A DNA stretch of 64,000 nucleotides. Origin: an uncultured delta proteobacterium. Lineage in GTDB: Bacteria > Myxococcota_A > Polyangia > Fen-1088. Positions 7,598 to 60,120 of the stretch are shown piece by piece. The stretch is from NCBI GenBank assembly GCA_963796685.1, contig CAWCMR010000021.1, positions 1-64,000 on the forward strand. Reading direction: 5' to 3'. Position 1 is the first letter of the stretch. Each line of letters opens with the position of its first letter. A model generated the notes under the pieces. The model was not told where the DNA came from and made no database searches. It saw nothing but the letters and a program-made list of their open reading frames with translations. Made by a program: the position numbers and the translations under genes.

Positions 7598-7668
7598 CGT
7601 GCAGGTTTAACCAGCGAAGAGCGGGGCCGCAACTGCGCAGCCGGTCAGCGTCGCGAACAACGTCGTCT

Positions 7669-8784
7669 TTAGAGAATCTCTCGGATGCTCATGGGGCGTT
7701 TGTGTTGTCGGGCAAAGCGATGAGCACGCCCAAGCATGGCAGCAAGATCGAACCCGGTCACGTCGATGCCCGCGTTCGCGAAGGCCGCTCGCAGCGTGGC
7801 TTTGCTGGCGTGCTTGCCAAGCACGAATTCGCTGCCCGGCTGGCCCACCGCGCTTGGCTCGAATGGCTGATAGGCCAGGCGATTCTTCTCGAGGCCAGCG
7901 CAGTGAATCCCGGACTCGTGGCGAAATGCCGAGGCACCGAGGACCGGCTTGCCGGGCGGAATGTCGCGCCTGGCTGCGGCCATGACCAACTGGCCAAGCG
8001 GTGCGAGCATCGCCGTGGACACTCCACTTCTTCGCGGCGAAAGCCTATCGAGGGCCATCACCACCTCTTCGAGGGCAGCGTTGCCGGCGCGCTCGCCCAG
8101 ACCGGCCACCGTCACATCCACGGATGCCGCACCTGCCTCGATGGCGCACACGGCGTTCGCGGTCGCCATGCCGAAGTCGTTGTGGCCATGAAACCCGATG
8201 TCCATCGATCCGGCCCAGGCCACGCACCTGGCAATCAGGTCTTGGGTTCGGTTGGGGGTCAGGACACCCACCGTGTCCGCCAGCCGTACGCGATCTACGC
8301 CGCAACTCTTGGCCGTGGTCACGAATCTCTCGACAAAACCCAGCGACGCACGACTGGCGTCTTGTGCGCCGACGGATACGAACGGAAAAGATCCGCGTGC
8401 CCATTCGACGAGGGTCTGCAGGTCGGCAAGAACCCGCGCTTCGTCCTTGTCAAAGCACGCCATCAAGATGGGGGACACCGGAAACGACAGGTGCACCGCC
8501 GATAGCTCGCACTGCGCCGCAGCCTCGATATCGGCGCGGCGAGCGCGACACCAGGCCGTCAAGCGAACGCGCCCATCGAGCTCCAACAACGCTCGGATGT
8601 CCTCGATCTCCTCCTTCCCCATGGCCGGCGTTCCCACTTCCAGCTCTGGCACGCCGGCCTTCACCAAGGCCCGCGCGATGGCCAGTTTCTCCGAGCGCGA
8701 GAAGACCACACCAGGGGCTTGCTCGCCGTCGCGCAGGGTGGTGTCCACCAACCAGACGTCGCGACCGGCTGACGAGGCTTTCAT
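7669..8784 (-). CDS. nifV: Homocitrate synthase
   Basis: [39 protein letters not shown]; its ATG overlaps the nifB stop (ATGA). Confidence 0.9.
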
Positions 8785-10086
8785 CCGCAGCCCCCACCCC
8801 CGCCGGTGCAGCCAAGCCCGCAGCCCTTGAAGGCCCTGCGCAGGGAAGCCGGGATCGGCGTGCCGCCATACACGGCCGAAAGCCCTTCCTCGATGAGGCC
8901 CTCCATCTCGATGACTTCCAGGCCGCGCCCGGTGAGCACACGTCGGGGAGCCGCACCCACGCCGGTCGTGAGGACCGCCCGGCAGTCGTGCAAAAGATCC
9001 GCGAGGTCGAGCCAGCGTTTGATGCCGCTGCCGGAATCGGGAGCCTCGCGAACCTCGACGGGCGCGTAGACGCTGTCTTGCTCGGCGAAGACATGGAAGC
9101 AGGTGGCTTCGCCCACGTGTTGGTTGACCAACATCCCCTCGCGCGAGGCCACCGCGACGTAGGGCCGATCTTTCGACGGCTTGCTGGCAAGGAGAGCAAA
9201 TTCCTTCGGGTCGGGCATGCCCTCGGCGGCCTCCCCGACGAAGCCACAGGCATCGGCCCGGCAACGCGCGCAATGGGACATCTGCGGAAGCTCCTTGCCT
9301 GCGACAAGGCGCGCCCCCGCCATGACAATGGGCGACGGCTCGCCCAGCGGTTCGAACGGCGTGCCCGACACGGGCACCATGGCCATGGTGTTCATGATCT
9401 CGGCGCCAGCGGCTCGCACCTCGGCAGCGACCGCGGCGATCTCGCCGTCGTTGATACCCGGCAGAACGATGGTGTTGACCTTGACCAGGATAGGCGTCTG
9501 CGCCAAGTCGCGCCAGGGCCTCGCGCTGCCTGGCCAAGAGCAATTCGGCCCCCTGCACACCCCGGTGGACGTGGTCGCCCATGCGCACCCAGCGGTAGAT
9601 CTTCGCGCCAACGGCCGGGTTCACGGTGTTGATGGTCAAGGTCACGTGGCTGACTTTCAGTTCGACCAATTCGTCGATGTGCTCGACAAGACCGAGCCCA
9701 TTCGAGGCGACGCAAAGAAGAATATTGGGAAACTCCTCGCGCACGAGCCGAAGCGTCTCCATGGTTTCGACAGGATTGGCGAACGGATCGCCTGGGCCGG
9801 CAATCCCGACCACGGTCAGTTGCGGCATCTTCGCGTACACCGCCTTGAGGTAGGTCACGGCCTGGAAAGGCGACAGAAGCACGCTGGAAACACCGGGGCG
9901 GGTTTCATTGGCACAATCGAAGGAGCGATCGCAATAATTGCACTGCAAATTGCATTTCGGCGCCACCGGCAGGTGGATCCGCGCCGCTTTTCGATACACG
10001 TCCGGGTTGAAGCAGGGATGATTGGCAAGGTCCAATTTGGATTCGAGCGTGTGCAGCGAGCGTCGCCGCCTGGCTGGGTCTGGCAT
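8781..10086 (-). CDS. nifB: FeMo-co biosynthesis radical SAM protein NifB with C-terminal NifX-like domain; frameshift near 9500-9520
   Basis: [30 protein letters not shown] in one frame; [30 protein letters not shown] in the next. Confidence 0.9.
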
Positions 10087-10128
10087 CACGTCACCTCGAC
10101 CGAGAAGCACTGCAAGCCCGAGGCCAGG

Positions 10129-10933
10129 TTACAGCACGGTCTTCACCCGGTAGACGCCGCCAATGACCAGAAACTCGTCCTCGCCCTTCAGAATGCCGCG
10201 GGGAAAAGCTGGCTCCAGAAGAAAACCTTCACCGTCGGCACGCGCACCTCCCACACCGTGGAGCCGAACTCGAAGGCCCGCTCCGAATCGGGCGTGAACG
10301 AGCTCAAGTTGTTGAGCCGGACGATACGCTCGCATGGGGAAACGACTTCCAGCGTCTGGTAGTCGCCAGGATCGTGCGTTCCGCGGAAAAGGGAGAAGCA
10401 ACTTTCCTCGGGATGGCGACGGCCAAGCTCGTACTGGCAGAACGTGTAGACCAGATCGAGCTGCGAGTCGATGGCATTGCTGCCTGCCAGACCCTTCATG
10501 CGGTCGGTGGCAAAGGCGAGCTGTCCCTCGGGATCGTTCGCGGTGACCTTTCCGCGGTGAAACGTGGGGCGCAGCCCGATGCGACTTTCCACCCAGGCTT
10601 TGAGCACAGCCCCTTCGATGGAATTGGAATCCACACCCCAGCCACGCAAATAGCGCACATACGTGTTGCGCAGGCTCCGCCTGGCGCTGAGGGTATGCTC
10701 GCGGTCGAGCTCGTGGAGATGGAACTTCGCGCTGACATGCTCGTTGAACAGGCGGGTGCGCTCGTCGGGATCGTTGACGACGATCGAGGCGCTCGAAGAG
10801 CCGCCGGCTGCTTGCCCGCACGCCTTGGATCTCGAAGCGCTGCGGCCGTTCGTTGAAGGCCAAGCTGCCGATGTACCAAGCCGGCAAGATCGCACAAGTT
10901 CCACGTCAGGGTCCAGCTCTCGCCCATCGGCAC
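10129..10933 (-). CDS. draT: NAD+:dinitrogenase reductase ADP-ribosyltransferase; three apparent frameshifts (~10885, ~10785, ~10200)
   Basis: Pieces in successive frames: NLCDL / PAWYIGSLAFN...QGV / SIEGAVLKAWVESRIGLRPTFH, QLDLVYTFCQYEL, LNNLSSFT / ILKGEDEFLVIGG; adjacent to draG. Confidence 0.85.
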
Positions 10934-11874
10934 TAGGAATGCCCCTCCATGGCGACGCCGAGCGAAACCGGCTGTCCGTTGGCCAGCGGGGAACGATCGA
11001 CGAGCTGGTCGGCGAGCGACTGCATCTCGACGCGCACGACGGGATCGAGCTTACGCAGCCACTCACGCGGAATCGCCTCGAGACCATAGTAGGCACCTGC
11101 GATGGCGCCGACAATGGCGCCGGTGGTGTCGGCATCGCCGCCTTGGTTCACGGTCGCAATCAGGCACTCCTCGAAGGAGGAAGTGGCGAAGAGAAAGTGA
11201 AGCACTGTCTGCATGGTATCCACCACGTAAGCGGTTGACAGCGCATGGTACGGGTCGTAGTGAAACTTTGGGAATTGCGTGACCGTCGCGTCCGCCTGCC
11301 GCCGCAGGCGGTGCATGGCATGTCCGATCAGCGCAAGCTGGATGAGCCGTCCCACCAAGATGCACGCAGCGTCCGAGAGGGGATGGTGGTGGGTGATGTG
11401 CGCCTGCTCGATGGCCAGCACTCCCAGCAACTGCTCGTTGGCCAGCGCGGCCAGGGCAATCGGTGCCATGCGCATGACCGCGCCGTTGCCCGCATCGCCT
11501 TCGTTAAGCGGGCCATGAACGGTCCCGTGCGTGATGAAGCGCGCGATACCGCGCCGGCAGGTATTGCCGATGTCGGGCGGCCGCGAGCGATACCAGGCCA
11601 CGAAGCGCTGGGCGATATCCGTGGGCGAAAAGCCCACGTCGACAATCGAACGCGCGATACACAGCGACATCTGGGTGTCGTCGGTGACTTCGCCCGGCCG
11701 CAAGCGCAGCCAGCCGCCACCGGTGAGCTTGCGGTGAACGCCGTGCTTGGACCTGATCTCCGAGGCGGTCATGAGCTCCACCGTGGCGCCAAGAGCATCG
11801 CCTATGGCCAGCCCGAGCAGACTGGCCCGTGCACGCTGGCGCACGTCTGGAAGATGAGTCAGGTACGCAGTCAC
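10933..11874 (-). CDS. draG: ADP-ribosyl-[dinitrogenase reductase] glycohydrolase
   Basis: GDALGATVE, VTDDTQMS, DIGNTCRRGI, GNGAVMR, VNQGGDADTTGAI. Confidence 0.95.
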   Translation of the reverse strand: MTAYLTHLPDVRQRARASLLGLAIGDALGATVELMTASEIRSKHGVHRKLTGGGWLRLRPGEVTDDTQMSLCIARSIVDVGFSPTDIAQRFVAWYRSRPPDIGNTCRRGIARFITHGTVHGPLNEGDAGNGAVMRMAPIALAALANEQLLGVLAIEQAHITHHHPLSDAACILVGRLIQLALIGHAMHRLRRQADATVTQFPKFHYDPYHALSTAYVVDTMQTVLHFLFATSSFEECLIATVNQGGDADTTGAIVGAIAGAYYGLEAIPREWLRKLDPVVRVEMQSLADQLVDRSPLANGQPVSLGVAMEGHS

Positions 11875-11883
11875 GCAGCCATT

Positions 11884-13248
11884 TCACAGGTAGGAAAAGC
11901 CGATGGGGGAGCTGTTTTGCTTTGCTTCGAGCAGGGTGTTCACCACGCCGTCGAAAAGCTGCATCGTACCCCGGTAGCCCACGTGAAGCACACGGCCTGC
12001 TCCCAGCCGATCATGGATAGGAAAGCCTACCCGCATGAGCGGCACACCAAGGGCGCGCGCCACGCGATAGCCTTTACTGCTACCGATCAGCAGCTCGGGC
12101 TCGAGACGCTGGCAGGCCGCCTCGATGGCGCCGTAGTCCGTGTCTTCCAGCAATTCCTCGACGGCGCCTGCGGGCAGGTCTTCCACAGCGGCTCGCAATG
12201 CCCGATTGCGCGCTCCGGTAGCACACAGCACGGGCCGGGCGCCGATCTCGGCGAGAAATCGCGCCAGTCCGGCCACCAGCTCCGGATCGCCGTACAGCGC
12301 GACCCGCTTTCCGAACACGTATTTGTGACCATCGGCATACGCATCGAGCAGGCGTCCCCTTTCCTTGTGCAGCCATTCGGGGGTCTCGCGCCCCGAGAGC
12401 TCGGCCAGGGCATCGCAAAAGGCGTCGCTGGCGCGCACGCCGATGGGCAGGCCCAGCGTTCTCGCCTCGCAGCCTCGCTCGGCCAACAGCGCGCCGGCCC
12501 GCGGGGCCTTGCCGGTCAGGGTCAGATCCAGGGTCGCCAGCGCCCGCGGCATGGCGGCGATGTCCTCGATGCTCGAACCGCCATCCGGCAGCGGGCAGTA
12601 GTGGTCAAGAATGACTCCGTCGAGAGTGTCGGAGTAGTCCGGCAGGATGACCGGCGGCAGATCGTAGGCCTCCGCGATCTCGCGCAAGTGGCGCAAGTCC
12701 GCGGGCGAGAGGATGGGCGGCAGGAGGTTCACCGTCCGCGTCTTGGGTCCGCCTTGGGTGGCCAGCGCCTCCACCAGTGCGCGCACCATGGCGTGAAAGC
12801 CCTCCACGTGCCCATCCTTGAAGCTGGGGGTAGAGGCCGAGACCACCGGCAGGTGCGGGTGGGGCTTTTCATCGTAACTGCGCAGGAGCCGTCCGATGTC
12901 TTCGCCGATGGTCTCGGCCAAACAGGTCGTCGCCACGGTGACCAGCTTGGGCTGATACTGCCGGGCCACATTGTCGAGAGCGCGGTGCAAATTCGATTCG
13001 CCGCCAAAGACCGTCTGCGACTCGCCGAAGCTGGAGGAGGCCACATCCATGGGCTCTCGAAAATGACTGATGAGATAGCGGCGGATGTAGGTCGCGCAAC
13101 CTTGCGCGCCGTGGAGCAACGGTACGGTATCGCGCACGCCCACGCTGGCCAGGGCGGCCCCGAGCGGCGCGCACAGGGTGCAGGGATTCACGGTGGCTCC
13201 GCCAGACGTCGAGTGGGTGGGTTCCTCCTGCTCGACGACGCAACTCAT
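11884..13248 (-). CDS. nifN: Nitrogenase FeMo-co scaffold subunit NifN
   Basis: NPCTLCAPLGA, HGAQGCATYIRRYLISHFREP, GFPIHDRLG; ATG overlaps the nifE stop. Confidence 0.9.
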   Translation of the reverse strand: MSCVVEQEEPTHSTSGGATVNPCTLCAPLGAALASVGVRDTVPLLHGAQGCATYIRRYLISHFREPMDVASSSFGESQTVFGGESNLHRALDNVARQYQPKLVTVATTCLAETIGEDIGRLLRSYDEKPHPHLPVVSASTPSFKDGHVEGFHAMVRALVEALATQGGPKTRTVNLLPPILSPADLRHLREIAEAYDLPPVILPDYSDTLDGVILDHYCPLPDGGSSIEDIAAMPRALATLDLTLTGKAPRAGALLAERGCEARTLGLPIGVRASDAFCDALAELSGRETPEWLHKERGRLLDAYADGHKYVFGKRVALYGDPELVAGLARFLAEIGARPVLCATGARNRALRAAVEDLPAGAVEELLEDTDYGAIEAACQRLEPELLIGSSKGYRVARALGVPLMRVGFPIHDRLGAGRVLHVGYRGTMQLFDGVVNTLLEAKQNSSPIGFSYL

Positions 13249-14621
13249 GGCGCCACCGCCTTGCTCTTCACTGCCCGAGCCGCTTTGCGCGGCATCAGAG
13301 ACCAGATGGGGCTCGTGGCGGTGGCGTGGATCTCGCGCGCGAAGGAAACCGCACCCTCGAACCCGGCCAGTGGAATCTTGCGCTCGTGGTTGTGGTCGCA
13401 GAACCCCAGGCCGAGCTTGTAGGCGATGGGGCGCTCCTTGACCCCGCCGATGAACACGTCGATGTCCTGCTCGACGAGGAAATTCGCCAGCTCGAGCGCG
13501 TTGGTGTCGTCGACGATGATGGTGTTCTCGTCGCACACTGCCTGCAGCTCCTCGTATTCCTCGCGGCTGCCGGTCTGCGTGCCCGCCAGCGCCACGGTGA
13601 CGCCGAGCTGGCGCAAGGCCCGCACCAGCGAAAAAGCCTTGAAGGCGCCGCCCACGTACAGGCCGGCGCGCTTGCCCTGCAGAGCCTTCTTGAATTCCTT
13701 GAGGGCCGGCAACACCTTGCCGAGCTCGGTGCGCACCAGCTCTTGCGCCCGCTTCAACACAGCCGCGTCGCCGAGTTTTTCCGCCACCTCGTAAAGCGCA
13801 TGCGCCGTGTCCTCGATGCCGAAGAAGGACACGCGAATGAATGGGATGCCGTACTTCTCCTCCATCGCCTTCGCCAGCGGCGTCATCGAGCCCGCGCACT
13901 GGACCACGTTCAAACGCGCGCCGTGGGCCCGGCGGATCTCGTCCACACGGCCGTCGCCCGTCAGCACGGACACGACCTCCACACCCATGCGCGCGAAGTA
14001 CTCTTTGATGATCCAGCTCTCGCCGGCGACGTTGAAGTCGCCCATCAGATTGATCGACAGCGGCCCGACCTTGTCGACGTCCCCTGTTCCGATGAGCTCC
14101 AACAAAGCGCGCGTGGCCGCGCTGTAGCCGTCGCGCTTGGTACCGCGAAAGCCTTCCGCCATCACGGGGACGACCGGAATTCCAACCTCGGCCGCCACCC
14201 GCTTGCACACGGCGGCGACATCGTCGCCGATGACCCCGACCACGCAGGTCGCATAGACGAAGGCCGCCTTGGGCGAATAGCGCGCGACAAGAGCGCGCAA
14301 GGATTCCTCCAGGCGCTTCTCGCCGCCCAGCACGATTTCGCGCTCGCGCAGGTCCGTGGAACAACTGATGCGATGAAGCTCCGGGCCCGAGGACAAGGCG
14401 CCGCGAATGTCCCAGGTGTAGGCGGCGCATCCAACTGGCCCGTGCACCAGGTGCAACGCGTCGGCGATGGGATACAGCACCACGCGCGAGCCGCAAAAGG
14501 TACAGGCGCGCTGGCTGACCGAACCGGCCGCGCTGGCCTTGTTGCAAGTCACCTCGACGGTGGCGAGCTTGCTCGTGCGGATGACTTGGCCTGCCCTGTC
14601 GTCCAGCACCTTGAAGCTCAT
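13245..14621 (-). CDS. nifE: Nitrogenase FeMo-co scaffold subunit NifE
   Basis: QRACTFCGSRVVLYPIADALHLVHGPVGC, GDFNVAGE, VQC, DHNHER. Confidence 0.93.
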   Translation of the reverse strand: MSFKVLDDRAGQVIRTSKLATVEVTCNKASAAGSVSQRACTFCGSRVVLYPIADALHLVHGPVGCAAYTWDIRGALSSGPELHRISCSTDLREREIVLGGEKRLEESLRALVARYSPKAAFVYATCVVGVIGDDVAAVCKRVAAEVGIPVVPVMAEGFRGTKRDGYSAATRALLELIGTGDVDKVGPLSINLMGDFNVAGESWIIKEYFARMGVEVVSVLTGDGRVDEIRRAHGARLNVVQCAGSMTPLAKAMEEKYGIPFIRVSFFGIEDTAHALYEVAEKLGDAAVLKRAQELVRTELGKVLPALKEFKKALQGKRAGLYVGGAFKAFSLVRALRQLGVTVALAGTQTGSREEYEELQAVCDENTIIVDDTNALELANFLVEQDIDVFIGGVKERPIAYKLGLGFCDHNHERKIPLAGFEGAVSFAREIHATATSPIWSLMPRKAARAVKSKAVAP

Positions 14622-14642
14622 GACGTCCCTTTCCGATCCCTT

Positions 14643-14978
14643 TCAGGTTACTTCCGCCCGGGGGCCTACCCGCCGCAAGCGGTCCACCGCCACCACATCC
14701 TGGGAGCGACGCATTCTAATGATGGGATCGACCTCGCTGCCACCGCGCGCGTACAGCGCGTGCGTCCGTTCTAGGGCGGAGGCATACAGCGGTAGACGAT
14801 CCTCTTCGCAAAGCGGCGGATTGCGCCCTTCCAGGACCTCTACCTCCCGGCCGAAGCGCTTGAGGATGCCGATGCGATGCGCCGCCAGCAGCGCCGGATC
14901 GAAGGCCACATCGAGCAGCGCGAAGAGCTCCTCGGCGGCCTCGATGTGGTCAATCGCCTGGTAAAGGTCCGTGGCCAT
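14643..14978 (-). CDS. nifW: Nitrogenase-stabilising protein NifW-like
   Basis: AEELFALLDVAFDPALLAAHRIGILKRF resembles the NifW core; position inside the nif operon. Confidence 0.75.
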   Translation of the reverse strand: MATDLYQAIDHIEAAEELFALLDVAFDPALLAAHRIGILKRFGREVEVLEGRNPPLCEEDRLPLYASALERTHALYARGGSEVDPIIRMRRSQDVVAVDRLRRVGPRAEVT

Positions 14979-15250
14979 CAGGCGACCATCGGTTCGAAGC
15001 TGAAGGCCTTCTTGTTGCACGTGCGGCCGCACGCTTCGCAGCCGATGCAGCTCTCGGGGTTGACCACCGACGCGAACATCTTGGCCGATTCCTCTTCATC
15101 GACTTCCTTGGGTGCCAGGACCCCATGGGCGCAGATCTTCATGCAGCGTCCGCAGCCGATGCACTTGTTGTCATCCACCGCTTTGACATATTTCGGGGTC
15201 CATTCTTGCCGACCTCGGGTGAGTCCAGTGACGTATCCCATGCCTTGCAT
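14978..15250 (-). CDS. fdxB: Nif-specific 2[4Fe-4S] ferredoxin III
   Basis: WTPKYV, CIGCGRCMKIC and CIGCEACGRTC motifs. Confidence 0.9.
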   Translation of the reverse strand: MQGMGYVTGLTRGRQEWTPKYVKAVDDNKCIGCGRCMKICAHGVLAPKEVDEEESAKMFASVVNPESCIGCEACGRTCNKKAFSFEPMVA

Positions 15251-15256
15251 TCCTTT

Positions 15257-15665
15257 CTATTCCTCATCCATGTCTTCGATGTGTCTGCGGCGAGGAGCCG
15301 CACCCAGTGTCTTGGCCAACCACGGCGGAAGGTCGCCGCGCAGCACGTATTGAAGCTTTCCAACCATTTCGGAAACGGGGGTCTCGACCTGCGTCTTCAT
15401 GGGGTGAATGTGGCGCGCGACCAGCTTGGCTGCCGCGGGCCCACCGATCTGCAGCGTGCATACGATGGAGCAGCCGGCCAGAGCCGTCGCGCGCGCGGTG
15501 ATTCGACCCTCCCCCGCCTTGTCGTCGTCGACCTCGTCCGGCCAGTCCACCTTGCCCACGCACTCGGCGCGATCCGGTTCGATGTCCCACAGGTAAAAGG
15601 CGGTCGAGCTTCCCGAAGTGCTCGTTGATCCGCTCTCCATCGCTACTGGTGAATGCAACCTTCAT
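15257..15665 (-). CDS. nifX: NifX; frameshift near 15610
   Basis: MKVAFTSSDGERINEHFG continues in another frame as FYLWDI...QIGGPAAAKLVARHIHPMK...PPWLAK. Confidence 0.88.
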
Positions 15666-15683
15666 CTGCTTGTGCTCCGTCCA

Positions 15684-17153
15684 TCAGCGCATGATTTCGA
15701 AGTGACGGTCGTCGCACGTCTCGTCCACGATATCGATGAACTTGTTGCAGATCTCGGTCAGCATGTTGATGGCGCCCTGGTAGCCGATAATTGGCCGCCT
15801 GTGCAGGTTGACCCGATCGAAGATGGGGAACCCGAATCGGAAGAGCGGGATCTTGGCGTCATGGGCGATCTGTTTGCCATGCGTGTCGCCAATGATTCCA
15901 TCCACCATGTCGGTCATGATCAGGGAACGCAGGTGCCACAAGTCCTTGTTCATGTAGACTTTGCTCGTCTTGCCGAAGGGAGAGGCGTCGAGCAACGCGT
16001 GTAGCTCTCGTTCGAGCTTCTTCGAGCCCTTGGAACAAATAATGTGCTGCGGCGTGGCTCCCATCTCGAGCAGGAACGAGACATAGCCGAGCAGATAGTC
16101 GGAATCCCCGTAAACCGCGAACTTCTTGCCGTGCATGTACTGGTGGGCGTCCGTCATGGCATCCACCGCGCGTCCACGCTCGGCCTTGAGCTCCGGCGGC
16201 ACGGGCTTGCCGAAAAGCTCCGAGAGCTTCATCAGGAAGGCATCGGTCTTGGCGATGCCCATGGGCATGGGCATGGAAACGTTCTCGCCCGTGTATTGCT
16301 CCTTGAGCCACACAAAGGTCTTGGAGGTGGCAAAGGGTGCCACGGTGACGGTGGCCTTTCCGTTGATGGAATCCGCGGCCTCTTGCAGGGAGGTTCCCCC
16401 CGGATAGGGGCGGTAGGTGCCATCGTTGGGCGAGTCGAAGGTGTCGGAGATGTCGGCAAGGAAGGTGTAGGGGATTCCGAAGCTCTCGAAGATCTTCTTG
16501 TACTCGCGGTAGTTGCCGGTGTTGGCATCGAAGCCCGCGATGAAGTTGAGCTTGCCGGTGCAGCGCCCCTCGACGGCCTTGTCCTCGGTGAGGGTTTGCA
16601 GGATGCTCATCAGCATGACGTCGTAGCCATGCACGTGGCATCCGCTGAAAGACGGCGTGTTGGCAAAGGGCAAAAGAAAGTCCTTGGGAATGCAGCCCTT
16701 CTGCCGGGCATTCCCAATGAAGGACCTGAGGTCGTCGCCGATGACCTCGGGCATGCACGAGGTGAAAACCGCGATCATCTTCGGTTTGTAGAGGGTGTAG
16801 GCGTTCTCCAGACCCTCGTGCAGGTTGTTCTGGCCGCCGAACACCGCGCCGTCCTCGGTCATGGAACTGGAAACCGCGGGCGATGGCTCACGGAAATGCC
16901 GGTTGAAGGTCGAACGGTAATACGAGGTGCACCCCTGAGCGCCGTGCACGAAGGGCAAGGTTCCCTCGAAGCCGGCGGCCGCGAGATACGCGCCCAGCGG
17001 CTGGCAGGCGTGGGCGGGATTGACCACCAGGGCCGTGCGCGCAAAGTTTTTCTGCTTGTAGTCCTCGGTGCCGAGCCATTCGAAAACACGTTTCTCATCT
17101 TCGTGAGATATCTCGGTCACGGGCTTGACGGGCAGGTCTAGATCGTTGGACAT
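15684..17153 (-). CDS. nifK: Nitrogenase MoFe protein beta chain
   Basis: NPAHACQPLG, HGAQGC, SSSMTEDGAVFGG, CMPEVIGDD, GFPIFDR. Confidence 0.97.
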   Translation of the reverse strand: MSNDLDLPVKPVTEISHEDEKRVFEWLGTEDYKQKNFARTALVVNPAHACQPLGAYLAAAGFEGTLPFVHGAQGCTSYYRSTFNRHFREPSPAVSSSMTEDGAVFGGQNNLHEGLENAYTLYKPKMIAVFTSCMPEVIGDDLRSFIGNARQKGCIPKDFLLPFANTPSFSGCHVHGYDVMLMSILQTLTEDKAVEGRCTGKLNFIAGFDANTGNYREYKKIFESFGIPYTFLADISDTFDSPNDGTYRPYPGGTSLQEAADSINGKATVTVAPFATSKTFVWLKEQYTGENVSMPMPMGIAKTDAFLMKLSELFGKPVPPELKAERGRAVDAMTDAHQYMHGKKFAVYGDSDYLLGYVSFLLEMGATPQHIICSKGSKKLERELHALLDASPFGKTSKVYMNKDLWHLRSLIMTDMVDGIIGDTHGKQIAHDAKIPLFRFGFPIFDRVNLHRRPIIGYQGAINMLTEICNKFIDIVDETCDDRHFEIMR

Positions 17154-17182
17154 GATGAGCTCCGCAAATTCGGCAAATTCGG

Positions 17183-18631
17183 TTAGAAGGGCGCCTTGAC
17201 GAGTTTCCAGGTGGGGCTATTGACAGCCATGTCGATGTCCCGGGCAAAGGTGGGAAAGCCCTTGTAGGCGTGGTAGGGACCCGAATAGTCCCAGCTGTGC
17301 ATCTGACGAAATGGAATGCCCATTTTCTGCAACAGGTACTTTTCCTTGATACCGCTGCCCACCAGGTCGGGTTTCAGGGTGTGGACGAATTGCTCCAGCT
17401 CGTATTCGCTGACGTCGTCGTAGATCACGGTCGCTTCCGGCATTTCCGGGGCCGTCCGTTCATAGTCGTCGTTGTGCGCAAACTCATAGCCCGATCCCAC
17501 GACATGCATGCCCAGATCCTCGTAGGCGCTCACGGTGTGCCGCGGACGCAGGCCGCCGACGTAAAGCATCACCTTCTTGCCTTCAAGGCGTGGCCGATAC
17601 TCCTCGATCACCTTCTGCATCTCGGGATCGTACTTGGCGATGGCGGCCTCGACCTTTTCCTTGATGTTGTCGTCGAAGCGCTCGGCAAGCTTGCGGAGGC
17701 TTGCTTTGATCTTGGTAGGACCGAAGAAGTTCAGCTCCAACCATGGGATATGGTACTTCTCCTCCATCACGCGGGCCATGTAGTTCATGGAGCGGTAGCA
17801 GTGGATGACGTTCAGCTTCACCATGTGTGTGGCTGCGATGTGCTCGATCTGACCGTCGCCAGTCCAGACAGCCTTGACGTTGAAGCCGCACTCTTCCAGC
17901 AGCGGCTTGACCGACCATGCATCACCGCCGATGTTGTACTCACCGATGAGCGCGATGTCGTAGGGACCAACCGGCTCCGTGAACTCGCGCGTCCCGATGA
18001 CATAGTCGCGAATCGTGTCGTTCGAGATGTGGTGGCCGAGCGACTGGCTGACTCCGCGAAAGCCCTCGCAATTGCACGGGATGATAGGGAGGTCCAGTTC
18101 CTTCGACATCGTGCGCGCCACCGAGTTGATGTCGTCACCAATGAGCCCGACCGGGCATTCCGATAAAACGGAGATTGCCTTGGCCAGGGGAAAGAGCTCT
18201 TTGGTTTCCCGCAACAGTTGAGCAAGTTTCTTATCACCCCCGTAGACGATGTCCTTCTCCTGAAAGTCGGAGGTCAATTGCATGGCAAAGTTGGAAACGC
18301 CATTCACGCCGGACACGAGGTTTCGGCGCGTGCCCCAGGAGTACCAGCCGCAGCCCACGGGACCGTGCGAGATGTGGGCCATGTCGCCAATGGGTCCCCA
18401 CACCACGCCCTTGGCGCCGGCATAGGCGCAACCGCGTGCGCTCATCACACCGGGGATGGTCTTCCGATTGGATTTTACACACGCCGATGTGGCTTCGGGA
18501 TCATTGGGCGCCAGGTGGGGTTCCCGCTTTTTGCGAGCCTTCTCGGGATAGACCTCAAGCGCCTTGTCGATCATGGCCTGGGTCGACTCGCGGGTGATGC
18601 CTTCCACGGTTTTCTTCACATCGGCGGACAT
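17183..18631 (-). CDS. nifD: Nitrogenase MoFe protein alpha chain
   Basis: [52 protein letters not shown]; 482 aa, no large Group II insertion. Confidence 0.97.
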
Positions 18632-18656
18632 GGTTACTTCTCCTTCGTAGGAACAA

Positions 18657-19565
<909 letters not shown>

Positions 19566-19589
19566 CTAATCTCTTCAGCCCGGGACTAC

Positions 19590-19605
19590 TGCAACAGGAA
19601 TGCCA
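19590..19605 (-). promoter_or_regulatory. Sigma54 (-24/-12) promoter of nifH
   Basis: Minus strand TGGCATTCCTGTTGCA, GG and GC separated by exactly 10 nt, about 65 bp upstream of the nifH ATG. Confidence 0.85.
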
Positions 19606-19698
19606 GCTTCGAAATGGCGATATCTCGCCGGTCTGTCCCGGCGCCGCTCGACAAGATCCGCGAATGTCGACGTGATTCCGACGAGATTGTCGATGATT

Positions 19699-19727
19699 GT
19701 AGGGGCGGGTTTGAAACCCGCCCCTAC
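19699..19727. repeat. GTAG-family REP palindrome
   Basis: GTAGGGGCGGGTTTGAAACCCGCCCCTAC, a perfect inverted repeat bounded by GTAG/CTAC. Confidence 0.8.
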
Positions 19728-19787
19728 GAAGTCCCTTCACACCATTCCTTCGCTGCCTCCGGCCGCGCCCCTGCGCCGCGGGCCAGG

Positions 19788-21416
19788 TCAGCGCACTGTG
19801 GTGCGCGTTCGCCGGGTGGGCGCGATGAGCGCCATCTCGATGCCGAACTTGCGGATCTTGTAGCGCACGATGCGTTCTCCCACGCCCAGCTCCCGCCCTG
19901 CCGCACTCACGTTGCCGCCCGCACGCTTGAGCGCATCGACCAGCATGTCCCGTTCGAGCTGGGCCACGTTCGAGCGTAGGGTTCCGTCGCTGTTGGGACG
20001 CAGCGCCGCCGGCATCTGCAAGGTCGGCGGCAGATCTCGACCGTGGATGACTCCGTCCCGCGAGAGCAGCACCGCATGCTCGACGCAGTTTTCGAGCTCG
20101 CGAATATTCCCCGGCCAGTGGTACGCCATCAGCATGTTGATGGCGCTGGTGGTGATGCGGCGAATGGGCTTGCGCATCTTCTCGGAGAACTTCGCGCTGA
20201 AATGGTTGGCCAGCGCCAGAACGTCATCCTTGCGCTCGCGTAGCGGGGGCAAGAACACGGGAAACACGTTGATTCGATAGAACAGATCGGCGCGAAAGCG
20301 GCCGTCCTTCATCAACGCTTCGAGGTCGCGGTTGGTCGCGGCCACGATCCGCACGTCCACGTGCACGGTCTTGTTGCTACCCACGCGTTCGAATTCCCGT
20401 TCCTGAATCGTGCGCAGCAGCTTCACCTGCACGGTGGGCGAGAAGTCGCCGATCTCATCGAGAAACAAGGTACCGCCGTCGGCTTCCTCGATCCGCCCGG
20501 CGCGCGCGTGCAGCGCCGAGGTGAAGGCGCCCTTCTCGTGTCCGAATAGCTCGCTTTCCAGCAAGCCCTCGCTCAGTGCCGAGCAGTTGACTTTCACGAG
20601 GGACGCGCCAGAGCGCCCGCTGAGGTAGTGAATCGCGGCGGCCACCAGCTCCTTGCCGGTTCCGGATTCTCCGCGGATAAGCACGGTGGTATCCGCCTCC
20701 GCGACCTGCCGGATTCGCTCGTAGACAAGATGCATGGGCGCCGAATCGCCGACCATGTTTTCCGGCCGTGACGACAACTGCAACTCGGACAGCAATCGCT
20801 TGCGTTGGTCTTCGAGGGCGGCGGTCTCGGCACGCATCTCCCGTCGGCGCTTGATGTCGTTGGCGATCAGCCCCGCCACGATGCTCAGTACCTTTTCCGC
20901 GTCCTGCAACAGATCGAGGTCCTGCCTCGGCAGGTCGACCGACAACGTCCCCACGTTCTCCTGTCCGATGGTGACCGGCAAGGCGACGAAGCTCCACCCC
21001 TTGCCGTCGATGTTCGCGTCCTTGCGTTGGTGCACCCGGTCTTGAAACCGCGGCTCCTCCTCGATACTGGGAATGATGAGCGACTTCCCGGTTTCGATCA
21101 CCCTGCCGAGGATCCCTTCACCGCGACGGTAGCGCGCGTCATCGCTGGGATGGGTTTCCGAGGGCCGCAGTGCTTCGACGAAGAGCTCGGTCCCGTCGGG
21201 TGAGAGCAACATGACCGTGGCGCGCCGCATGTCCAGCCGCTCTTCCAGGACGCGCAGGATTTCGCGCAGGATGTCCTCCTGGGAGCCGGTTCGGGCCAAC
21301 GTGCGCGCCACCTCGGCCAGCGCGTTCAGCGACTGCACGTGGCGCCGGGAGCCCGCGCGGCAGATGTGGCAGGGGTCGTTTGAAGGGCGGAGCAAATCCT
21401 CTGAGAGAAGGGTCAT
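19788..21416 (-). CDS. nifA: NifA-type sigma54 activator (GAF-AAA+-HTH)
   Basis: N-terminal [42 protein letters not shown]-terminal HTH; directly upstream of nifH. Confidence 0.85.
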
Positions 21417-21562
21417 GCCAACGACAGTGCGAGTGCTCGCGCCCCGGTTGACTCGAAGCAGGCTTCACGCATGGGATCGACTGTATCCGGAAGCTTGTAA
21501 GCGGACTGTTTCGTTTGCGTGAATGCTTCGCGCCAGTGAACGGCGCGACGGCGACGCTTCGA

Positions 21563-29870: not shown

Positions 29871-31194
29871 GGCTCCTCGCTATTTGGAATGGATTGAATT
29901 GGGAAATGCACAGGGAAGTCTGAAGTCCAGTTTTGACAGCAGCAGATAAATCACAGTCTTCATTTTGCGCGCGGAGCGAAAGCCACGCGCCCGCGCCTTG
30001 GCCGCCTGGATGAGGCTGTTGAGTCCTTCCAAGAGACCATTCGTCAGGCCTGACATGAACCATCTCATCACGCCTGCCTGGTGCGCCTTGAGGGTCTTGG
30101 CGGCCCTGATGACGGGTTCCAATCGGCTATGGGTGGCCCAGAAATACCAGCGCTGAAACCACGCCTCCGCTTCATCCGCACTCAGGCTATACAACTCCTG
30201 TAGCATGAGCTTGATGTGGTAGGCCCGCGCAGTGGCCAATTTGGAGGAGCGCAAGACCGCGAAGTGCTCCCTGTTCTCGGATTTGATGTTGGCCTCGTTC
30301 CTCAGCCAGTCGTGGCGCGTGCCCTTCAACTCCGGAGAGGACTTCTGCTCCTGCCTTCGCACCTCATCGATTGCGTCGTTCATGAGTTGGATGACATGGA
30401 ACCTGTCGAAGGTTAGGTGCGCCGCCGGAAACGTCTCCAAGATGCCCTTGATGAATGCCTGCGACATGTCGAGACTGAAGTCCGTCACCTTCTTCACGTC
30501 TCCACCGTGAGCGAGCAGATCGTCCTTGAAACAAGCCACCGTGCCGTGATCTTTCCCCTCCGTGACGAACAAGACTTTCGCCGCAACCATGTCGGCAAAG
30601 ACCGTGACATAGACGTGGTTCTTCTGCCGCGAAGTCTCGTCGACGCCAACCTCGGCGACCTGGCTGTAGTCGGCTCGCTCACGGGCCTCGTCCACGTAGT
30701 GTTCCAGGATGCGCCACAGGAGCGTGTCATGCTCGCCGACGATGCGACCGACCGCCGCCACCGTGAGGCCGTTGCGTGCCAGTTCCACCACCATCGCCTC
30801 GAAGAGAAGGGTGAAGTTCGACCCGCCACGAGCCCATGGCACATCGACCGTCAAGACGCCGTGCTTGTCACACTTGGTTCGAGGTTGTCTTGCCTCGACA
30901 TAGGTGAGGTACTGGAAGAAGTTCAGGTGTCGCCATGTCTGCGGCGAGGCATCGTGTACCTTGCAAGCATCGCCACACGTAGGGCAAGGGAAGGTGCTCC
31001 CCGGCTTGAAGTCGACTTTGATGTCGAGGCGCTTCTTCTCGGCGTCAAGGTTCAGCTCTACGACCTCCCATGGATTGACCATGCCGAGAGCCACTGTAAA
31101 AAGCGCATTGACGTCAAGACCAGAACTTGGATTTTGCACCACGGAAGATTAGCGGAACAACCAACCTCGCGTCCATTTTAGACAGCGAGGAGCC
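29871..31194 (-). mobile_element. ISL3-family insertion sequence with 8-bp TSD CAAAAATC
   Basis: IRs GGCTCCTCGCTATTTGGAATGGA / GGCTCCTCGCTGTCTAAAATGGA; CAAAAATC at 29863-29870 and 31195-31202. Confidence 0.92.
29880..31142 (-). CDS. ISL3-family transposase
   Basis: CPTCG zinc finger, WRHLNFFQY, GVDETS, DMS, FDRFHV, TNGLLEGLNS, ARARGFR. Confidence 0.95.
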   Translation of the reverse strand: MVQNPSSGLDVNALFTVALGMVNPWEVVELNLDAEKKRLDIKVDFKPGSTFPCPTCGDACKVHDASPQTWRHLNFFQYLTYVEARQPRTKCDKHGVLTVDVPWARGGSNFTLLFEAMVVELARNGLTVAAVGRIVGEHDTLLWRILEHYVDEARERADYSQVAEVGVDETSRQKNHVYVTVFADMVAAKVLFVTEGKDHGTVACFKDDLLAHGGDVKKVTDFSLDMSQAFIKGILETFPAAHLTFDRFHVIQLMNDAIDEVRRQEQKSSPELKGTRHDWLRNEANIKSENREHFAVLRSSKLATARAYHIKLMLQELYSLSADEAEAWFQRWYFWATHSRLEPVIRAAKTLKAHQAGVMRWFMSGLTNGLLEGLNSLIQAAKARARGFRSARKMKTVIYLLLSKLDFRLPCAFPNSIHSK

Positions 31195-44181: not shown

Positions 44182-47100
44182 GGCGCGATCGCCGTCTGCG
44201 TGTCAGCCAAAGCCCGGCCGCGACCGCGAGGAAACCAAGCCACCCCGGCCCACCTCTCGGCGCCGCGCTGGCCAGCGTACAACTGCACGCGAAGGCGCCG
44301 CTGCCCTTGCTCTGCGTCTGCGCCGCGACCCCGGAGACGGCTGCGATCGCGCAATCGGCCGAGCCGTCGTCGCCCACCACGCAGACCTGACCTTGACGAC
44401 AATGGACCAGCTCGCAAGGATCGTCCGTGCACAACCCGGTCGTGTTCAAGCAAACCCTGCCGGCCGAACACGAAACGGCGGAGCAAGGCGAAGGACGGCA
44501 GTTGCCGGTCGTAACATCGCAGAACGAGTCGCTATCGCAGGTCTGCGAGCACGGCGCCTTGATGCAGGTGCCGTGCGAGCACGCCTGTCCCGTGCCACAC
44601 GACACGCCGGCGCAACTCGGCTCGCAAGCACCCGCGCTGCACAGCTGACCGGCCGCGCAGGTTTTGCCGGCGCACGGATCCACCACGCACTGGCGGCCGA
44701 TACACGATAGCCCGGGCGCGCAGCCCCTGGAGTAACAGTCGACGCAGACGCCGTTCACGCAACTGGCACCGGACAGGCAGTTGACGCCCGCACACGGATC
44801 CACGCAGGTGCCGTCGTTGCGGCAAATCATGCCAATCGCACAGGGCTTCTGCGCGCAGGCCTTGACGATGCACGCCCCGTTCTTGCAGATGCGATCGACC
44901 GGGCACGGATACTGCTCGCCGCCCTCGACGCAAGTCGGAACGCACTGGCCGCCCACGCAGGTGTAACCGGCGGCACAGCTGGCGTTGTTGTCGATCTGCC
45001 CGTCGCAGTCGTTGTCCTTGCCATCGCAGATCTCGGGCGCCGGCCCGACCCCTCCGCGACACTTCCAGCCCCCGCTGCCGCTGCACACGAAGGTCCCAGG
45101 CCGGCACTCGCCGGCCATGGATTGCCCGGGCATCATGCCCTCGGGATTGCAGCTCGTCGCCGGGCAAAACCACCCCGTCGTCGATGCTGCCATTGCAATC
45201 GTTGTCCTTGCCGTCGCAGATCTCGGGGGTTGGCCCGACCGAGTTGCACACAATCTTGCCGCCCGTGCAAACGGACGTGCCCGTCTTGCATTCGCCGACG
45301 TTGCTGCCGCACACCACACCGACGCCGGGCATGGCGGGCTCGCCCGGCCCCGGTGGCTCGTCCACCAGCCCGTCGCAGTCGTTGTCGCGGCCGTCGCACA
45401 CCTCGGGCGAGGGACCGGTGGCGGTCACGGTGCATTCGACATCGGTTCCCGCCGCGTTGCACACGAGCTGGCCCGCACCCTGGCAAGACTGCTCGTTGCA
45501 GGGCTGGCCCAGGGTCGGAAAGTCCTCGTCGATTTGGCCGTCGCAATCGTCGTCCTTGCCGTTGCACGATTCGGCGACGGGAACGCGCGATCCGGCGCAG
45601 GTCAGGCCCATCTTGTTCCCGGCACAGGCGTAGTGCCCGAAGGCGCACTGCCCGACGCACTTGCCGCTGGCCACGTCGCAACCGACGGTGCCGGCGGGAT
45701 AGCAGATGTCCGTGGCAAGCGGATTGTTCTCGTCGACGCGGCCATCGCAGTTGTTGTCGAGCCCGTCGCACGCGATCTCGGACGTCGGCGTGACCGCGCC
45801 GACACAGGGTTGCCACGCGCCGGCGGAACAAACCTGCATGCCCGTCGCACAGGCCCCGACACAAGACCAAGCCTTGCCGGCGTCATCGTAGGTGCAGCCG
45901 GTGGCACCCGCCGGATAGCAGGAACGTGCGAACTGGTCGACGACGCCGTCGCAGTCGTTGTCGATCCCGTCGCAAACCTCGGCCGTCGGTCCGACCGCGC
46001 CTTGGCAAGTCACCTGCTGGCCCCCTGCCCCGTCGGAGACGCACGCCGTGATGCCCGGCTTGCACGCCCCGAGATTGAGCCCGCAAGGAACGGGGGCGAT
46101 ATCGTCCACGATGCCATTGCAGTTGTCGTCGAGGCCGTTGCACACCTCCGGCTTGGAGCTGCAGGCACACGACAAGCCCTCGTCGATGTTGCCGTCGCAG
46201 TTCTCGTCGGCGCAGTCGGCGGCGGTCGGGGCCTGACAGCCGGCCAGGGTTCCGCATTGTTCGGGCACGGGCGTTCCCGCCACCAAGGGCGTGGCGCCGC
46301 AGGTGGCTGCGGTCGCGCACATGACGCCGTCGCCGGCGGGGTTGCAAGCGTACACACCCTGCCGCGTGCAACGGCCGACGCCCACCTGGCAGGGCTGCCC
46401 CTTGAGCGGAAATGCGGCGGCCTCGTCGTAGCAGGTGGCGTCGCAGTTGCACTTGGGCTTGGGAATGGCGTTGAGCAGGATGTCGCCGAGGTTGGCGGTC
46501 AAATCCGCTCGATTCGACGGGAAGTAAGCCGACCGGGTCTGCCCCGACCCGGCCATCGCCATGCCGTTCAAGGTTGTGGAGAAGCCGGTGCCGAAGCCGA
46601 CCACGTACACGCCGATACCCGCGGAATAGGCGGCGCCCGCGGCGGTCACCGGATCGCCGGTGGAGTTGGGGCTGCACGTGTCTTCACCGTCGGTGATCAG
46701 GATGATGCTGTAGGGCCGGCAGGCTGCGCGAGGGTCGCGGGCGCCAGCCGAGCTCGAAAGCAGCCCTGCGCCCGCGCCGATGTTGGTGGTGCTGGCGTCG
46801 GTCAGCCAGGCGCGCACGGAATCGAGGGCCGATGCCAGCGGTGTCATGGTGACCGCGCGGAGCTCGCGATTCGACGTGGGCGAGAACGGCGGCAGGTCTT
46901 CCTTGCCGTCGATCCAATGATAGATATCGAGAAGGTTCGAGGTGCCCGCCGTGGGAAAACCGACGATGACCTGACCACCGATGCAGCCCTGGGCGAAGCT
47001 GCACTTGGCGTACAGACAATCGAACGCGCCCCAATCGAACACCAGGTCGTTGGCGTCCGACGCGTTCGCACAACCTACGCAGCCAGCGCCCGAAGCACAC

Positions 47101-47600: not shown

Positions 47601-47694
47601 CCGATCTCCGCGAGATTCGGCGCGACACCGCAATCCCGCGATAGCCGCAGAAGGTCGTGGCCGTGGGCGTGGCCGTGGCCGTGGCCGGTTGTAC

Positions 47695-54342: not shown

Positions 54343-56239
<1,897 letters not shown>

Positions 56240-60039: not shown

Positions 60040-60120
60040 GATGGACGTGATGGGAGCTTGCCGCCTCCGTGCCCTTCGCGGATCCGAGCACCATGCCATC
60101 CGCGGGACGCCGGCGGTGTA

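Follow-up and report, generated by a model that had tools for sequence, protein, structure and literature searches.

A Putative Resident Molybdenum Nitrogenase Regulon in an Uncultured Soil Myxobacterial Genus outside the Anaeromyxobacter Lineage

The DNA analyzed here (the window) comprises 64,000 nucleotides of contig C21 from genome G000 (G000:C21:1-64000) and contains a cluster of nitrogen fixation (nif) genes on the minus strand between positions 7669 and 21416. The genome that carries this cluster has a size of 7.31 Mb in 26 contigs and a guanine-plus-cytosine (GC) content of 64.6%. The encoded proteins were identified from their scores against the curated cut-offs of the NCBIfam models and from their Pfam domains. 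The cluster consists of nifA, a sigma-54 promoter, and nifH-D-K-X-fdxN-W-E-N-draG-draT-B-V. Position 7669 is the final base of the nifV stop codon and the ATG of nifA is at position 21416. The gene list, gene order, common orientation, and cluster ends had been proposed in a first-pass annotation made from the sequence, and all were borne out by the NCBIfam and Pfam matches, with the ends exact. The genes are listed below with the lengths of the products in amino acids (aa) and with the model scores and cut-offs in bits (score/cut-off).

19788..21416, minus strand: nifA-like sigma-54 enhancer-binding activator, 542 aa; GAF, AAA+ sigma-54 interaction, and HTH_8 domains
18657..19526, minus strand: nifH, nitrogenase Fe protein, 289 aa; TIGR01287, 468.4/394.35
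17183..18631, minus strand: nifD, MoFe protein alpha chain, 482 aa; TIGR01282, 774.5/653.55
15684..17153, minus strand: nifK, MoFe protein beta chain, 489 aa; TIGR01286, 655/427.3
15257..15665, minus strand: nifX; TIGR02663, 87.2/112, on the downstream frame; frame split by an extra base at about 15610
14978..15250, minus strand: nif-specific ferredoxin III (fdxN type), 90 aa; TIGR02936, 91.3/80.55
14643..14978, minus strand: nifW, 111 aa; NF010702, 35.7/115; Pfam NifW, 38.1/23
13245..14621, minus strand: nifE, 458 aa; TIGR01283, 587.5/505.1
11884..13248, minus strand: nifN, 454 aa; TIGR01285, 322.6/326.8
10933..11874, minus strand: draG, ADP-ribosyl-[dinitrogen reductase] hydrolase, 313 aa; TIGR02662, 416.8/337.05
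10129..10927, minus strand: draT, dinitrogenase reductase ADP-ribosyltransferase; Pfam DRAT, 236.7/25; three frames in the window
8781..10086, minus strand: nifB, radical S-adenosylmethionine (SAM) domain and NifX-like C-terminal domain; extra base at about 9509 in the window
7669..8784, minus strand: nifV, homocitrate synthase, 371 aa; TIGR02660, 423.9/462.9

The domain architecture of an activator is present in NifA as the Pfam domains GAF, Sigma54_activat, AAA_lid_14, and HTH_8. NifH keeps the Walker A motif, both cluster cysteines, the sequence GDVVCGGF, and the arginine of GCAGRG; we take these motifs to be the nucleotide-binding Walker A site, the cysteine pair of the metal cluster, and, for the arginine, the target of DraT. 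The start of nifD was assigned to the ATG at 18631, which is preceded by the ribosome-binding site GAAGGAG. NifD carries the motifs CYRS and HSWDY, presumably the cysteine and histidine ligands of the iron-molybdenum cofactor (FeMo-co) as known from the A. vinelandii literature. The radical-SAM motif CNLQCNYC (CxxxCxxC) is present in NifB, and NifV contains the Pfam domains HMGL-like and HCS_D2. The ferredoxin, originally named fdxB, was reassigned to ferredoxin III of the fdxN type. The "many" overlapping stop and start codons of the first-pass annotation proved a generous description. Overlaps occur at 3 of the 11 junctions from nifH to nifV, namely, fdxN/nifW (the nifW ATG overlaps the fdxN stop in TGATG), nifE/nifN (ATGA), and nifB/nifV (ATGA), and the other gaps are 5-42 nt.

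The minimal six-gene criterion for nitrogenase consists of nifH, D, K, E, N, and B. All six genes are present, with NifN marginally under its cut-off and NifB obtained after a one-base change. NifD scores 295 bits on the VNFD model (cut-off 823.1) and 287 bits on the ANFD model (cut-off 873.8), which is far below both. No second nifD, vnfD, or anfD was found in G000, where the four nifD-family matches are nifD, nifE, nifN, and nifK; vnfG and anfG were not searched. Because these four are the sole nifD-family matches in the genome, the system is predicted to be of the molybdenum (Mo) type only, with no vanadium or Fe-only type. Elsewhere in G000 are rpoN (C8:340298-341767), modA, and three amtB-type genes.

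The noncoding DNA of the cluster contains four further features.

19590-19605, minus strand: sigma-54 -24/-12 element TGGCATTCCTGTTGCA, 64 nt before the nifH ATG
19648..19670, minus strand: inverted repeat TCGACA-N11-TGTCGA, with TCGACAATCTCG (TCGACA half-site) at 19682-19693
19701..19725, minus strand: perfect hairpin AGGGGCGGGTTTCAAACCCGCCCCT, just after nifA, between nifA and nifH
10111..10126, minus strand: second sigma-54-like element TGGCCTCGGGCTTGCA, between the draT stop codon and the nifB ATG (10086)

A sigma-54 promoter had been proposed ahead of nifH, and a -24/-12 element conserved across the genus of the host is indeed found there. The GG-N10-GC core is kept in five of six sequences of the genus (CGGC in genome G012) and in Anaeromyxobacter loci. 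The window shows no enrichment of the bare sigma-54 pattern (5 matches vs 3.46 expected), and the evidential weight therefore lies with the position of the element and its conservation in the genus. The inverted repeat is centered about 55 nt upstream of the -24 element. In an alignment of the nifH-upstream regions, the repeat and the half-site are conserved in G000, in the genus members G002 and G010, and in locus L002 (a short-read metagenome-assembled genome (MAG) of the same genus), and are degenerate in G004 and G012. This repeat is a candidate upstream activator site for the NifA-like protein. The element TGGCCTCGGGCTTGCA may be an internal promoter for nifB-nifV.

The hairpin between nifA and nifH is a copy of the perfect palindrome GGGGCGGGTTT(C/G)AAACCCGCCCC, which occurs in 19 copies on 10 contigs of G000 (e.g., C25:1047586 and C8:293016), among them those that bear the 16S gene and rpoB. 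Among 10 relatives aligned, the hairpin at this spot is common to G002 only. Loose ends of the short-read contigs described below accumulate at 19697-19727. The palindrome looks like a repetitive extragenic palindromic (REP)-type repeat of G000, and the hairpin possibly also serves as the terminator of nifA.

A mode of operation can be proposed from the protein families. Under nitrogen limitation, the GAF-domain NifA-like activator would bind upstream of nifH, and RpoN-dependent transcription would proceed from the -24/-12 promoter through nifHDK-nifX-fdxN-nifW-nifEN-draGT-nifBV. The second sigma-54-like element before nifB would possibly boost the expression of nifBV. FeMo-co would be built by NifB, NifEN, NifX, and NifV, and N2 would be reduced by NifHDK using electrons from ferredoxin III. 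In response to ammonium, DraT and DraG would switch NifH off and on via ADP-ribosylation of the conserved arginine. Both enzymes and the arginine of NifH are present, and draT is intact only after three single-base changes supported by short reads.

Five frame-breaking insertions or deletions (indels) are found in 13.7 kb of the window at positions 9509, 10203, 10782, 10886, and 15610. The frameshifts flagged earlier in nifB and nifX are both present, and three additional sites in draT had been left unflagged. The DRAT profile is split between two frames, which match its positions 6-48 and 43-236. In the successive uncorrected frames of nifB, the TIGR01290 profile is matched at 8-183 (230.6 bits) and 181-279 (98.9 bits), for a cut-off of 343.65. 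The five sites were checked using the contigs of four soil-metagenome runs from one study, which were compared with window positions 7600-21500; two further runs, X5 and X6, contained only 0.06 of the sampled words and were left out. These are taken as short-read data because the loose ends of the contigs carry transposase-library adapter sequence.

At position 9509 in nifB, one base is left out in the contigs of runs X1, X2, and X4. Apart from this base, the contigs of X2 (382 nt) and X4 (239 nt) that cross the site match the window exactly. In draT, one base is left out at 10782 in the X1 and X2 contigs, one base is left out at 10886 in the X1 contig, and an extra A appears behind 10203 in the X1 and X2 contigs. 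One base is left out at 15610 in nifX in X2, the sole contig covering this site. All nine site-by-run observations differ from the window, none supports it, and the differing depth equals the total depth everywhere. Application of the five changes provided single open frames of 141 codons for nifX, 306 codons for draT, and 448 codons for nifB. The corrected NifX aligns over 4-135 of the 135 residues of the L002 ortholog, the corrected DraT is 74.7% identical over 265 residues to the intact L002 ortholog, and the corrected NifB is 76.4% identical over 420 residues to that of L002. In L002, nifX, draT, and nifB are all intact. The frameshifts in nifX, draT, and nifB are attributed to indel errors of the assembly, and the proviso of the first-pass annotation that those in nifB and nifX might be real did not hold up against the short-read contigs.

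Joints between distant sites (e.g., 11415 to 20168) were also encountered in the short-read contigs. Each is represented by a single contig whose shorter arm measures 20-22 letters, and these joints were taken as cross-matches of paralogous nif genes or of other organisms and not as rearrangements.

The gene for RNase G (rng; window 54343-56239, minus strand) is split across two frames near 55000-55040, so that the catalytic domain and the thioredoxin-like C-terminal domain are read in different frames. This split is probably another assembly indel, and since RNase G is also affected, the indel noise would be contig-wide. In two assemblies of the family with few contigs, rpoB is broken, with split matches and two in-frame TGA codons (L139 on G001:C8 and L138/L140 on G021:C8), which suggests the same indel noise in other long-contig MAGs of the group.

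The host was placed using a single-gene tree of RpoB with 34 rows and 1399 columns, which was constructed with the 'quick' setting of IQ-TREE, supported by Shimodaira-Hasegawa-like approximate likelihood ratio test (SH-aLRT) values only, and rooted on proteobacteria. The RpoB of G000 is 95-97% identical to those of G004 and G012 of the same genus and 92.5% identical to that of the nearest named MAG, which is labeled 'uncultured Myxococcales bacterium'. The identity is 84-89% to other genera of the family, 63-82% to other families of the class, 71.4% to A. oryzae, 69.6% to Geobacter argillaceus, and 58% to two proteobacteria. The RpoB proteins of Anaeromyxobacter-type MAGs are 87-89% identical to that of A. 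oryzae. With values of 71% for Anaeromyxobacter, 68-71% for Polyangiaceae-type genomes, and 70% for Geobacter, pairwise RpoB identity alone cannot resolve these groups; only the tree does. A. oryzae and seven relatives form one clade (SH-aLRT 99) with G000 outside. G000 is found in the sister clade of 23 rows (98), together with all genomes rated 'same family' and 'same class'. Genome G063, labeled by its submitter as an uncultured Polyangiaceae, is nested within family f7 of this sister clade (100).

The assignment to Myxococcota is based on the RpoB tree together with the MreB clusters of the Atlas, in which the commonest phylum is Myxococcota. These data place the host among the myxobacteria but not within the Anaeromyxobacter lineage; its branch is the one that includes Polyangiaceae-labeled genomes. 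The host had been described earlier as Polyangia-type. The non-Anaeromyxobacter myxobacterial branch was recovered in the RpoB tree, and the class Polyangia follows only indirectly, from one submitter label and the 'same class' kinship rating of the genome collection, the tree rows being without a cultured, named Polyangia reference. The possibility that the host is a known diazotrophic genus was discounted, given an RpoB identity of 71.4% to A. oryzae vs 95-97% within its own genus and the separate clades.

The contig that carries the nif cluster also has mreB-mreC-PBP2-rodA, uppS, cdsA, and rlmL-type genes. In the sister species G002, the nif cluster, a TonB-dependent receptor gene, and the mre genes are found in the same arrangement on one contig. 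Between G002 and G000, both the mre genes and the nif cluster have a nucleotide identity of 94-95%, and the TonB receptor gene has one of 89%. The tetranucleotide correlation with the rest of the genome is 0.9975 for contig C21 and 0.981 for the portion with the nif genes, compared with a mean of 0.973 (sd 0.02) for random pieces of 13.9 kb. At the nifV end, a short-read contig spans from nifV across position 7600 into the flank. The concern that the contig might be chimeric was dispelled by the synteny with G002, the tetranucleotide profile, and the host-wide palindrome between nifA and nifH.

The distribution of nifD was determined by searching genomes with the nifD model and counting the matches over the cut-off. 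A match was obtained in 8 of the 13 genomes of the genus (G000 included), in none of 24 other genomes of the family (18 genera), and in none of 24 genomes from 15 other families of the class. In a sample of the phylum, 2 of 401 genomes have a match, as do 10 of 31 genomes among A. oryzae and its relatives. The second match of the phylum sample is in G447 (L106, G447:C10:177575-181978), which is rated 'same class' and belongs to family f7. Its NifD is of the Chromatiaceae/Gallionella type and indicates a probable independent acquisition in the class. The 400-genome phylum sample contains none of the 30 relatives of A. oryzae and no Anaeromyxobacter-type nifD, as a sampling effect or through a different phylum assignment.

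The same block (window 7688 to about 21530) is present in G004, G010, and G012 on contigs of 148-431 kb. The flanks of the block in these genomes match other contigs of G000 (C22, C8, C2, and C1), and hence the chromosomal location of the block varies. In G012, nifH lacks an adjacent nifA. In a search for an empty site, the nif-less genome G001 was found to keep a 69% ortholog of the LMF1-like gene that adjoins nifV, in another neighborhood, and no clean insertion site was obtained. The 13.9-kb cluster appears to behave as a unit that is present in 8 of the 13 genomes of the genus in varying neighborhoods. NifH, NifD, and NifK are 89-100% identical among G002, G004, G010, and G012 and the intergenic DNA diverges, which indicates purifying selection.

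The favored reading, with a probability of roughly 0.8, is that an uncultured genus of soil myxobacteria, distinct from Anaeromyxobacter and its relatives and placed in the class-level clade of the Polyangiaceae-labeled genomes, has a resident and almost certainly intact regulon for Mo-nitrogenase. The host lineage would be a credible nitrogen fixer in terms of genomic potential only. For window 8700-16000, no RNA run was found among the sequencing runs, a result that carries no information on expression. Several observations weigh against this reading. The completeness of G000 is 88.6% and the contamination is 6.48%. NifA scores just under the cut-off of TIGR01817 (509.1 vs 528.85), NifN and NifV likewise fall just under their cut-offs, and NifX and NifW score well under theirs. 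No nifS, nifU, nifQ, or nifZ was found within the cluster; nifS/nifU, nifQ, and electron-donor genes were not searched genome-wide. The canonical NifA site TGT-N10-ACA has no occurrence in the 274 nt upstream of nifH or in the 317 nt upstream of nifB. All of the short-read runs belong to a single study and may derive from the very samples that yielded G000; their independence concerns the sequencing chemistry and does not extend to the source. Over draT, the X1 contig shows 36 differences from the window in 2897 bases and represents another strain, the nifX site is covered by a single contig, and the change at 10886 comes from a single run. Five of the 13 genus members are without nifD; four are 74-94% complete and G001 (90%, 9 contigs) is the strongest case. 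The trait is thus not fixed in the genus.

Three other explanations were weighed. It is very improbable that the nif genes come from a different organism (Anaeromyxobacter or Geobacter, for example) and were joined to G000 by misassembly or misbinning. The contamination of the bin and the identity of NifHDK to Anaeromyxobacter/Geobacteraceae (75-92%) would fit such an origin, but the linkage to mreB-mreC-PBP2-rodA and other housekeeping genes recurs in G002, seven genomes of the genus other than G000 carry the cluster, and the contigs of G004, G010, and G012 extend beyond both cluster ends into flanks that match core regions of G000. The composition of C21 and of its nif part, the host palindrome between nifA and nifH, and the short-read contig that leaves nifV for the flank also argue for residence, as does the GC content of G000; that of Anaeromyxobacter is roughly 74%. 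A decaying cluster, whose broken nifX, draT, and nifB frames would be genuine in this strain and would prevent nitrogen fixation, is favored by the five frame-breaking indels in 13.7 kb, by an rpoB of G000 that is unbroken over 4.2 kb, and by the five nifD-less species, which show that loss occurs in the group. Such decay is improbable when set against the nine short-read observations, none of which has the window version and two of which come from contigs otherwise identical to the window. The cluster contains no in-frame stops and no large deletions, each of the three genes aligns over essentially its whole length with an intact ortholog once the five changes are made, and breaks of the same kind are found in the housekeeping gene rng on the same contig and in rpoB of other few-contig assemblies of the family.

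It is unlikely, finally, that the genes are intact and yet do not support free-living diazotrophy, either because an accessory function is missing or because the oxygen demands are unsuited, so that the cluster would be a silent or conditionally useless acquired island. The co-oriented unit of nifH, D, K, E, N, and B with nifV, nifX, nifW, the ferredoxin gene, and draT/draG speaks against such an island, as do the purifying selection on NifHDK, the amelioration of composition to that of the host, and the presence of modA, rpoN, and amtB. Counted in its favor are the patchy presence in the genus, the different chromosomal places, the missing nifA next to nifH in G012, and the missing nifS, nifU, nifQ, and nifZ within the cluster. 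Most cultured relatives of the class are aerobes, which was counted on the same side.

The ancestry of the cluster was addressed using a NifD tree of 54 rows and the identities of the individual proteins. In the tree, the genus members, L002, L003 (an unplaced MAG in which rpoB was not found), and the Polyangiaceae-labeled L005 form one clade (95). This clade is nested among Anaeromyxobacter sequences, and the Geobacteraceae form a neighboring clade (95). No donor is named because the branches that order these groups have support values of 84-90. The identities of the proteins of the cluster to those of named Anaeromyxobacter/Geobacter loci are as follows.

NifH, NifD, NifK: 73-89%; up to 92% to other named MAGs
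Ferredoxin III: 59-78%
NifX, DraG, DraT: 46-61%
NifE, NifN: 35-42%
NifB: 37-47%
NifA: 37-41%
NifV: 42-46%

NifA is 79-98% identical in the genus members, but the activators encoded next to nif genes in Anaeromyxobacter and in other named loci reach only 37-48% identity. NifE is 77-99% identical to those of the genus members and of L017 and 34-42% identical to those of all other named loci with a match. Within the window, NifE is 33% identical to NifD and NifN is 33% identical to NifK. On the nifK model TIGR01286, NifN scores 306.2 (cut-off 427.3). The best solved relatives of NifN are short NifK chains (9p1x_B, 294.2 bits; 1mio_B, 293.9 bits), and the NifN chain 3pdi_B scores 232.7 bits. NifN also keeps the NifK-like motifs HGAQGC and TTC and is judged from these matches to be unusually NifK-like. 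This type of NifE/NifN is common only to L017 (77% and 67%, respectively), and the pair is assigned to a lineage other than Anaeromyxobacter/Geobacter. Because the identity is high for NifHDK and low for NifE, NifN, NifB, NifA, and NifV, the cluster is considered a mosaic, with NifHDK of the Anaeromyxobacter/Geobacter type and NifE, NifN, NifB, NifA, and NifV of other lineages.

The closest known systems include those of Anaeromyxobacter (A. oryzae Red232, L011, and A. soli SG29, L004), whose members are the documented diazotrophs of the Myxococcota and likewise have a Mo-only nitrogenase. The identities to the window are 85-88% for NifH, 84-87% for NifD, 75-79% for NifK, 72-75% for ferredoxin III, and 58% for NifX. 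A sigma-54 type promoter precedes nifH as in the window, and a sigma-54 activator and draG/draT are also nearby in A. soli. The gene order differs, being (draG, draT inverted,) nifA, HDK, EN, X, fdxN, B. The identities of the other proteins are lower, at 42% for NifE, 35-36% for NifN, 37-40% for NifA, and 37-47% for NifB, where the value of 47% applies only to a 257-residue partial match in L004. The upstream repeats also differ, and the hosts (RpoB 71%) form the sister clade to that of the window's genome. In the Geobacteraceae (Geobacter argillaceus, L015), NifH is 84%, NifD 83%, and NifK 76% identical, and draT/draG and nifV are nearby. This family is the sister clade in the NifD tree and belongs to a different phylum; NifE is 37% and NifN 36% identical, and the gene order of G. 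argillaceus differs. The nif genes of Geobacter are regulated via GnfK/GnfM/GnfR rather than NifA.

Two loci from hosts of the same class-level clade were also compared, L005 (G063, uncultured Polyangiaceae) and L017 (G491, delta proteobacterium). G063 lies inside family f7 in the RpoB tree, and the RpoB of G491 is 84% identical to that of G063. The NifD of L005 is in the same clade as that of the window, and L017 has the same HDK-X-fdxN-EN block. These hosts belong to a different family (RpoB about 71% to the window), and their loci have nifA-nifB-nifV-draT before nifH, unlike the window. The identities are 41-43% for NifA, 47-48% for NifB, and 46-48% for NifV. The parts of the DraT/DraG system of Rhodospirillum rubrum and Azospirillum are likewise found in the window, with DraG over its cut-off, a DRAT domain, the arginine in GCAGRG of NifH, and amtB genes in the genome. 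Unlike in these organisms, draG precedes draT and both are inside the nif operon between nifN and nifB.

The system is a canonical nitrogenase in an unusual, apparently undescribed host genus, with a mosaic make-up and a patchy, movable distribution. The suggestion of the first-pass annotation that diazotrophy extends to another lineage of the Myxococcota is supported as genomic potential by a complete cluster in a non-Anaeromyxobacter host. A broader interpretation is more tentative, with somewhat less than even odds. It holds that this uncultured, species-rich, Polyangia-side soil genus may be a genuine and unrecognized group of diazotrophs, with a self-contained 13.9-kb cassette that would have been gained, lost, and relocated and that has parts of mixed ancestry, including a NifDK-like NifEN shared with Polyangiaceae-type MAGs. 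The candidate host range of diazotrophy is widened by a second, distantly related genus of myxobacteria in which 8 of 13 species keep a complete cluster, and it comes to include a class known mainly for aerobic, predatory, or cellulolytic life styles.

In PMC11127431 and PMC10359436, myxobacterial diazotrophy is tied to the Anaeromyxobacteraceae, and the Anaeromyxobacteraceae and Geobacteraceae are reported as the dominant soil carriers of nifD/nifK. In Table S10 of PMC13479853 (2026), 8 of 36 'nifH' MAGs are Polyangiales. The 'nifH' annotation of that paper is by eggNOG only, and the table also holds taxa in which NifH-like paralogs are likely. Nitrogen fixation is described as 'infrequent' among the Myxococcota MAGs of a 2026 preprint (bioRxiv 10.64898/2026.07.10.737566). 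No account of a verified nifHDK cluster in Polyangia was found in full-text literature searches, and the supplements of this preprint could bear on that claim. The nif-bearing MAGs of this genus and of neighboring lineages are already in public collections.

Because NifD is 84-87% identical to those of Anaeromyxobacter isolates, best-hit assignment of nifD/nifK reads in soil surveys would book these organisms under Anaeromyxobacteraceae. From this identity, reads reported in surveys as 'Anaeromyxobacteraceae' or as 'possibly Geobacteraceae or Anaeromyxobacteraceae' may partly belong elsewhere. The case also illustrates that a pathway in a long-contig MAG should not be declared defective on the basis of frameshifts until these have been compared with short-read data. 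Knowledge of the nitrogenase mechanism is unchanged by the finding.

The flanks of the cluster contain several other features. The myxobacterial hallmark genes mentioned in general terms in the first-pass annotation correspond to mreB-mreC-PBP2-rodA and the genes for RNase G, a protein with MopE motifs, and a response regulator with DUF4388, and they are suggestive, not diagnostic. Two of these hallmarks are probably the large myxobacteria-style proteins encoded at 44532-47693 (1053 aa, with MopE-type metal-binding repeats and a VWA domain) and at 60040-63594 (a response regulator of 1184 aa with DUF4388 and TPR repeats). A putative transposase open reading frame (ORF) of the Y2 type (PF04986) at 47645-48631 adjoins the gene with the MopE repeats. 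The window between 25600 and 33900 has a GC content of 0.55-0.60 and a tetranucleotide correlation of r = 0.84 to the genome, and it contains an ISL3 transposase gene (29880-31148), a UPF0236-like ORF, a peptidase S10 fragment, and an adhesin-like ORF. This stretch (25.6-33.9 kb) is probably a recent insertion because it is missing from the otherwise collinear contig of G002.

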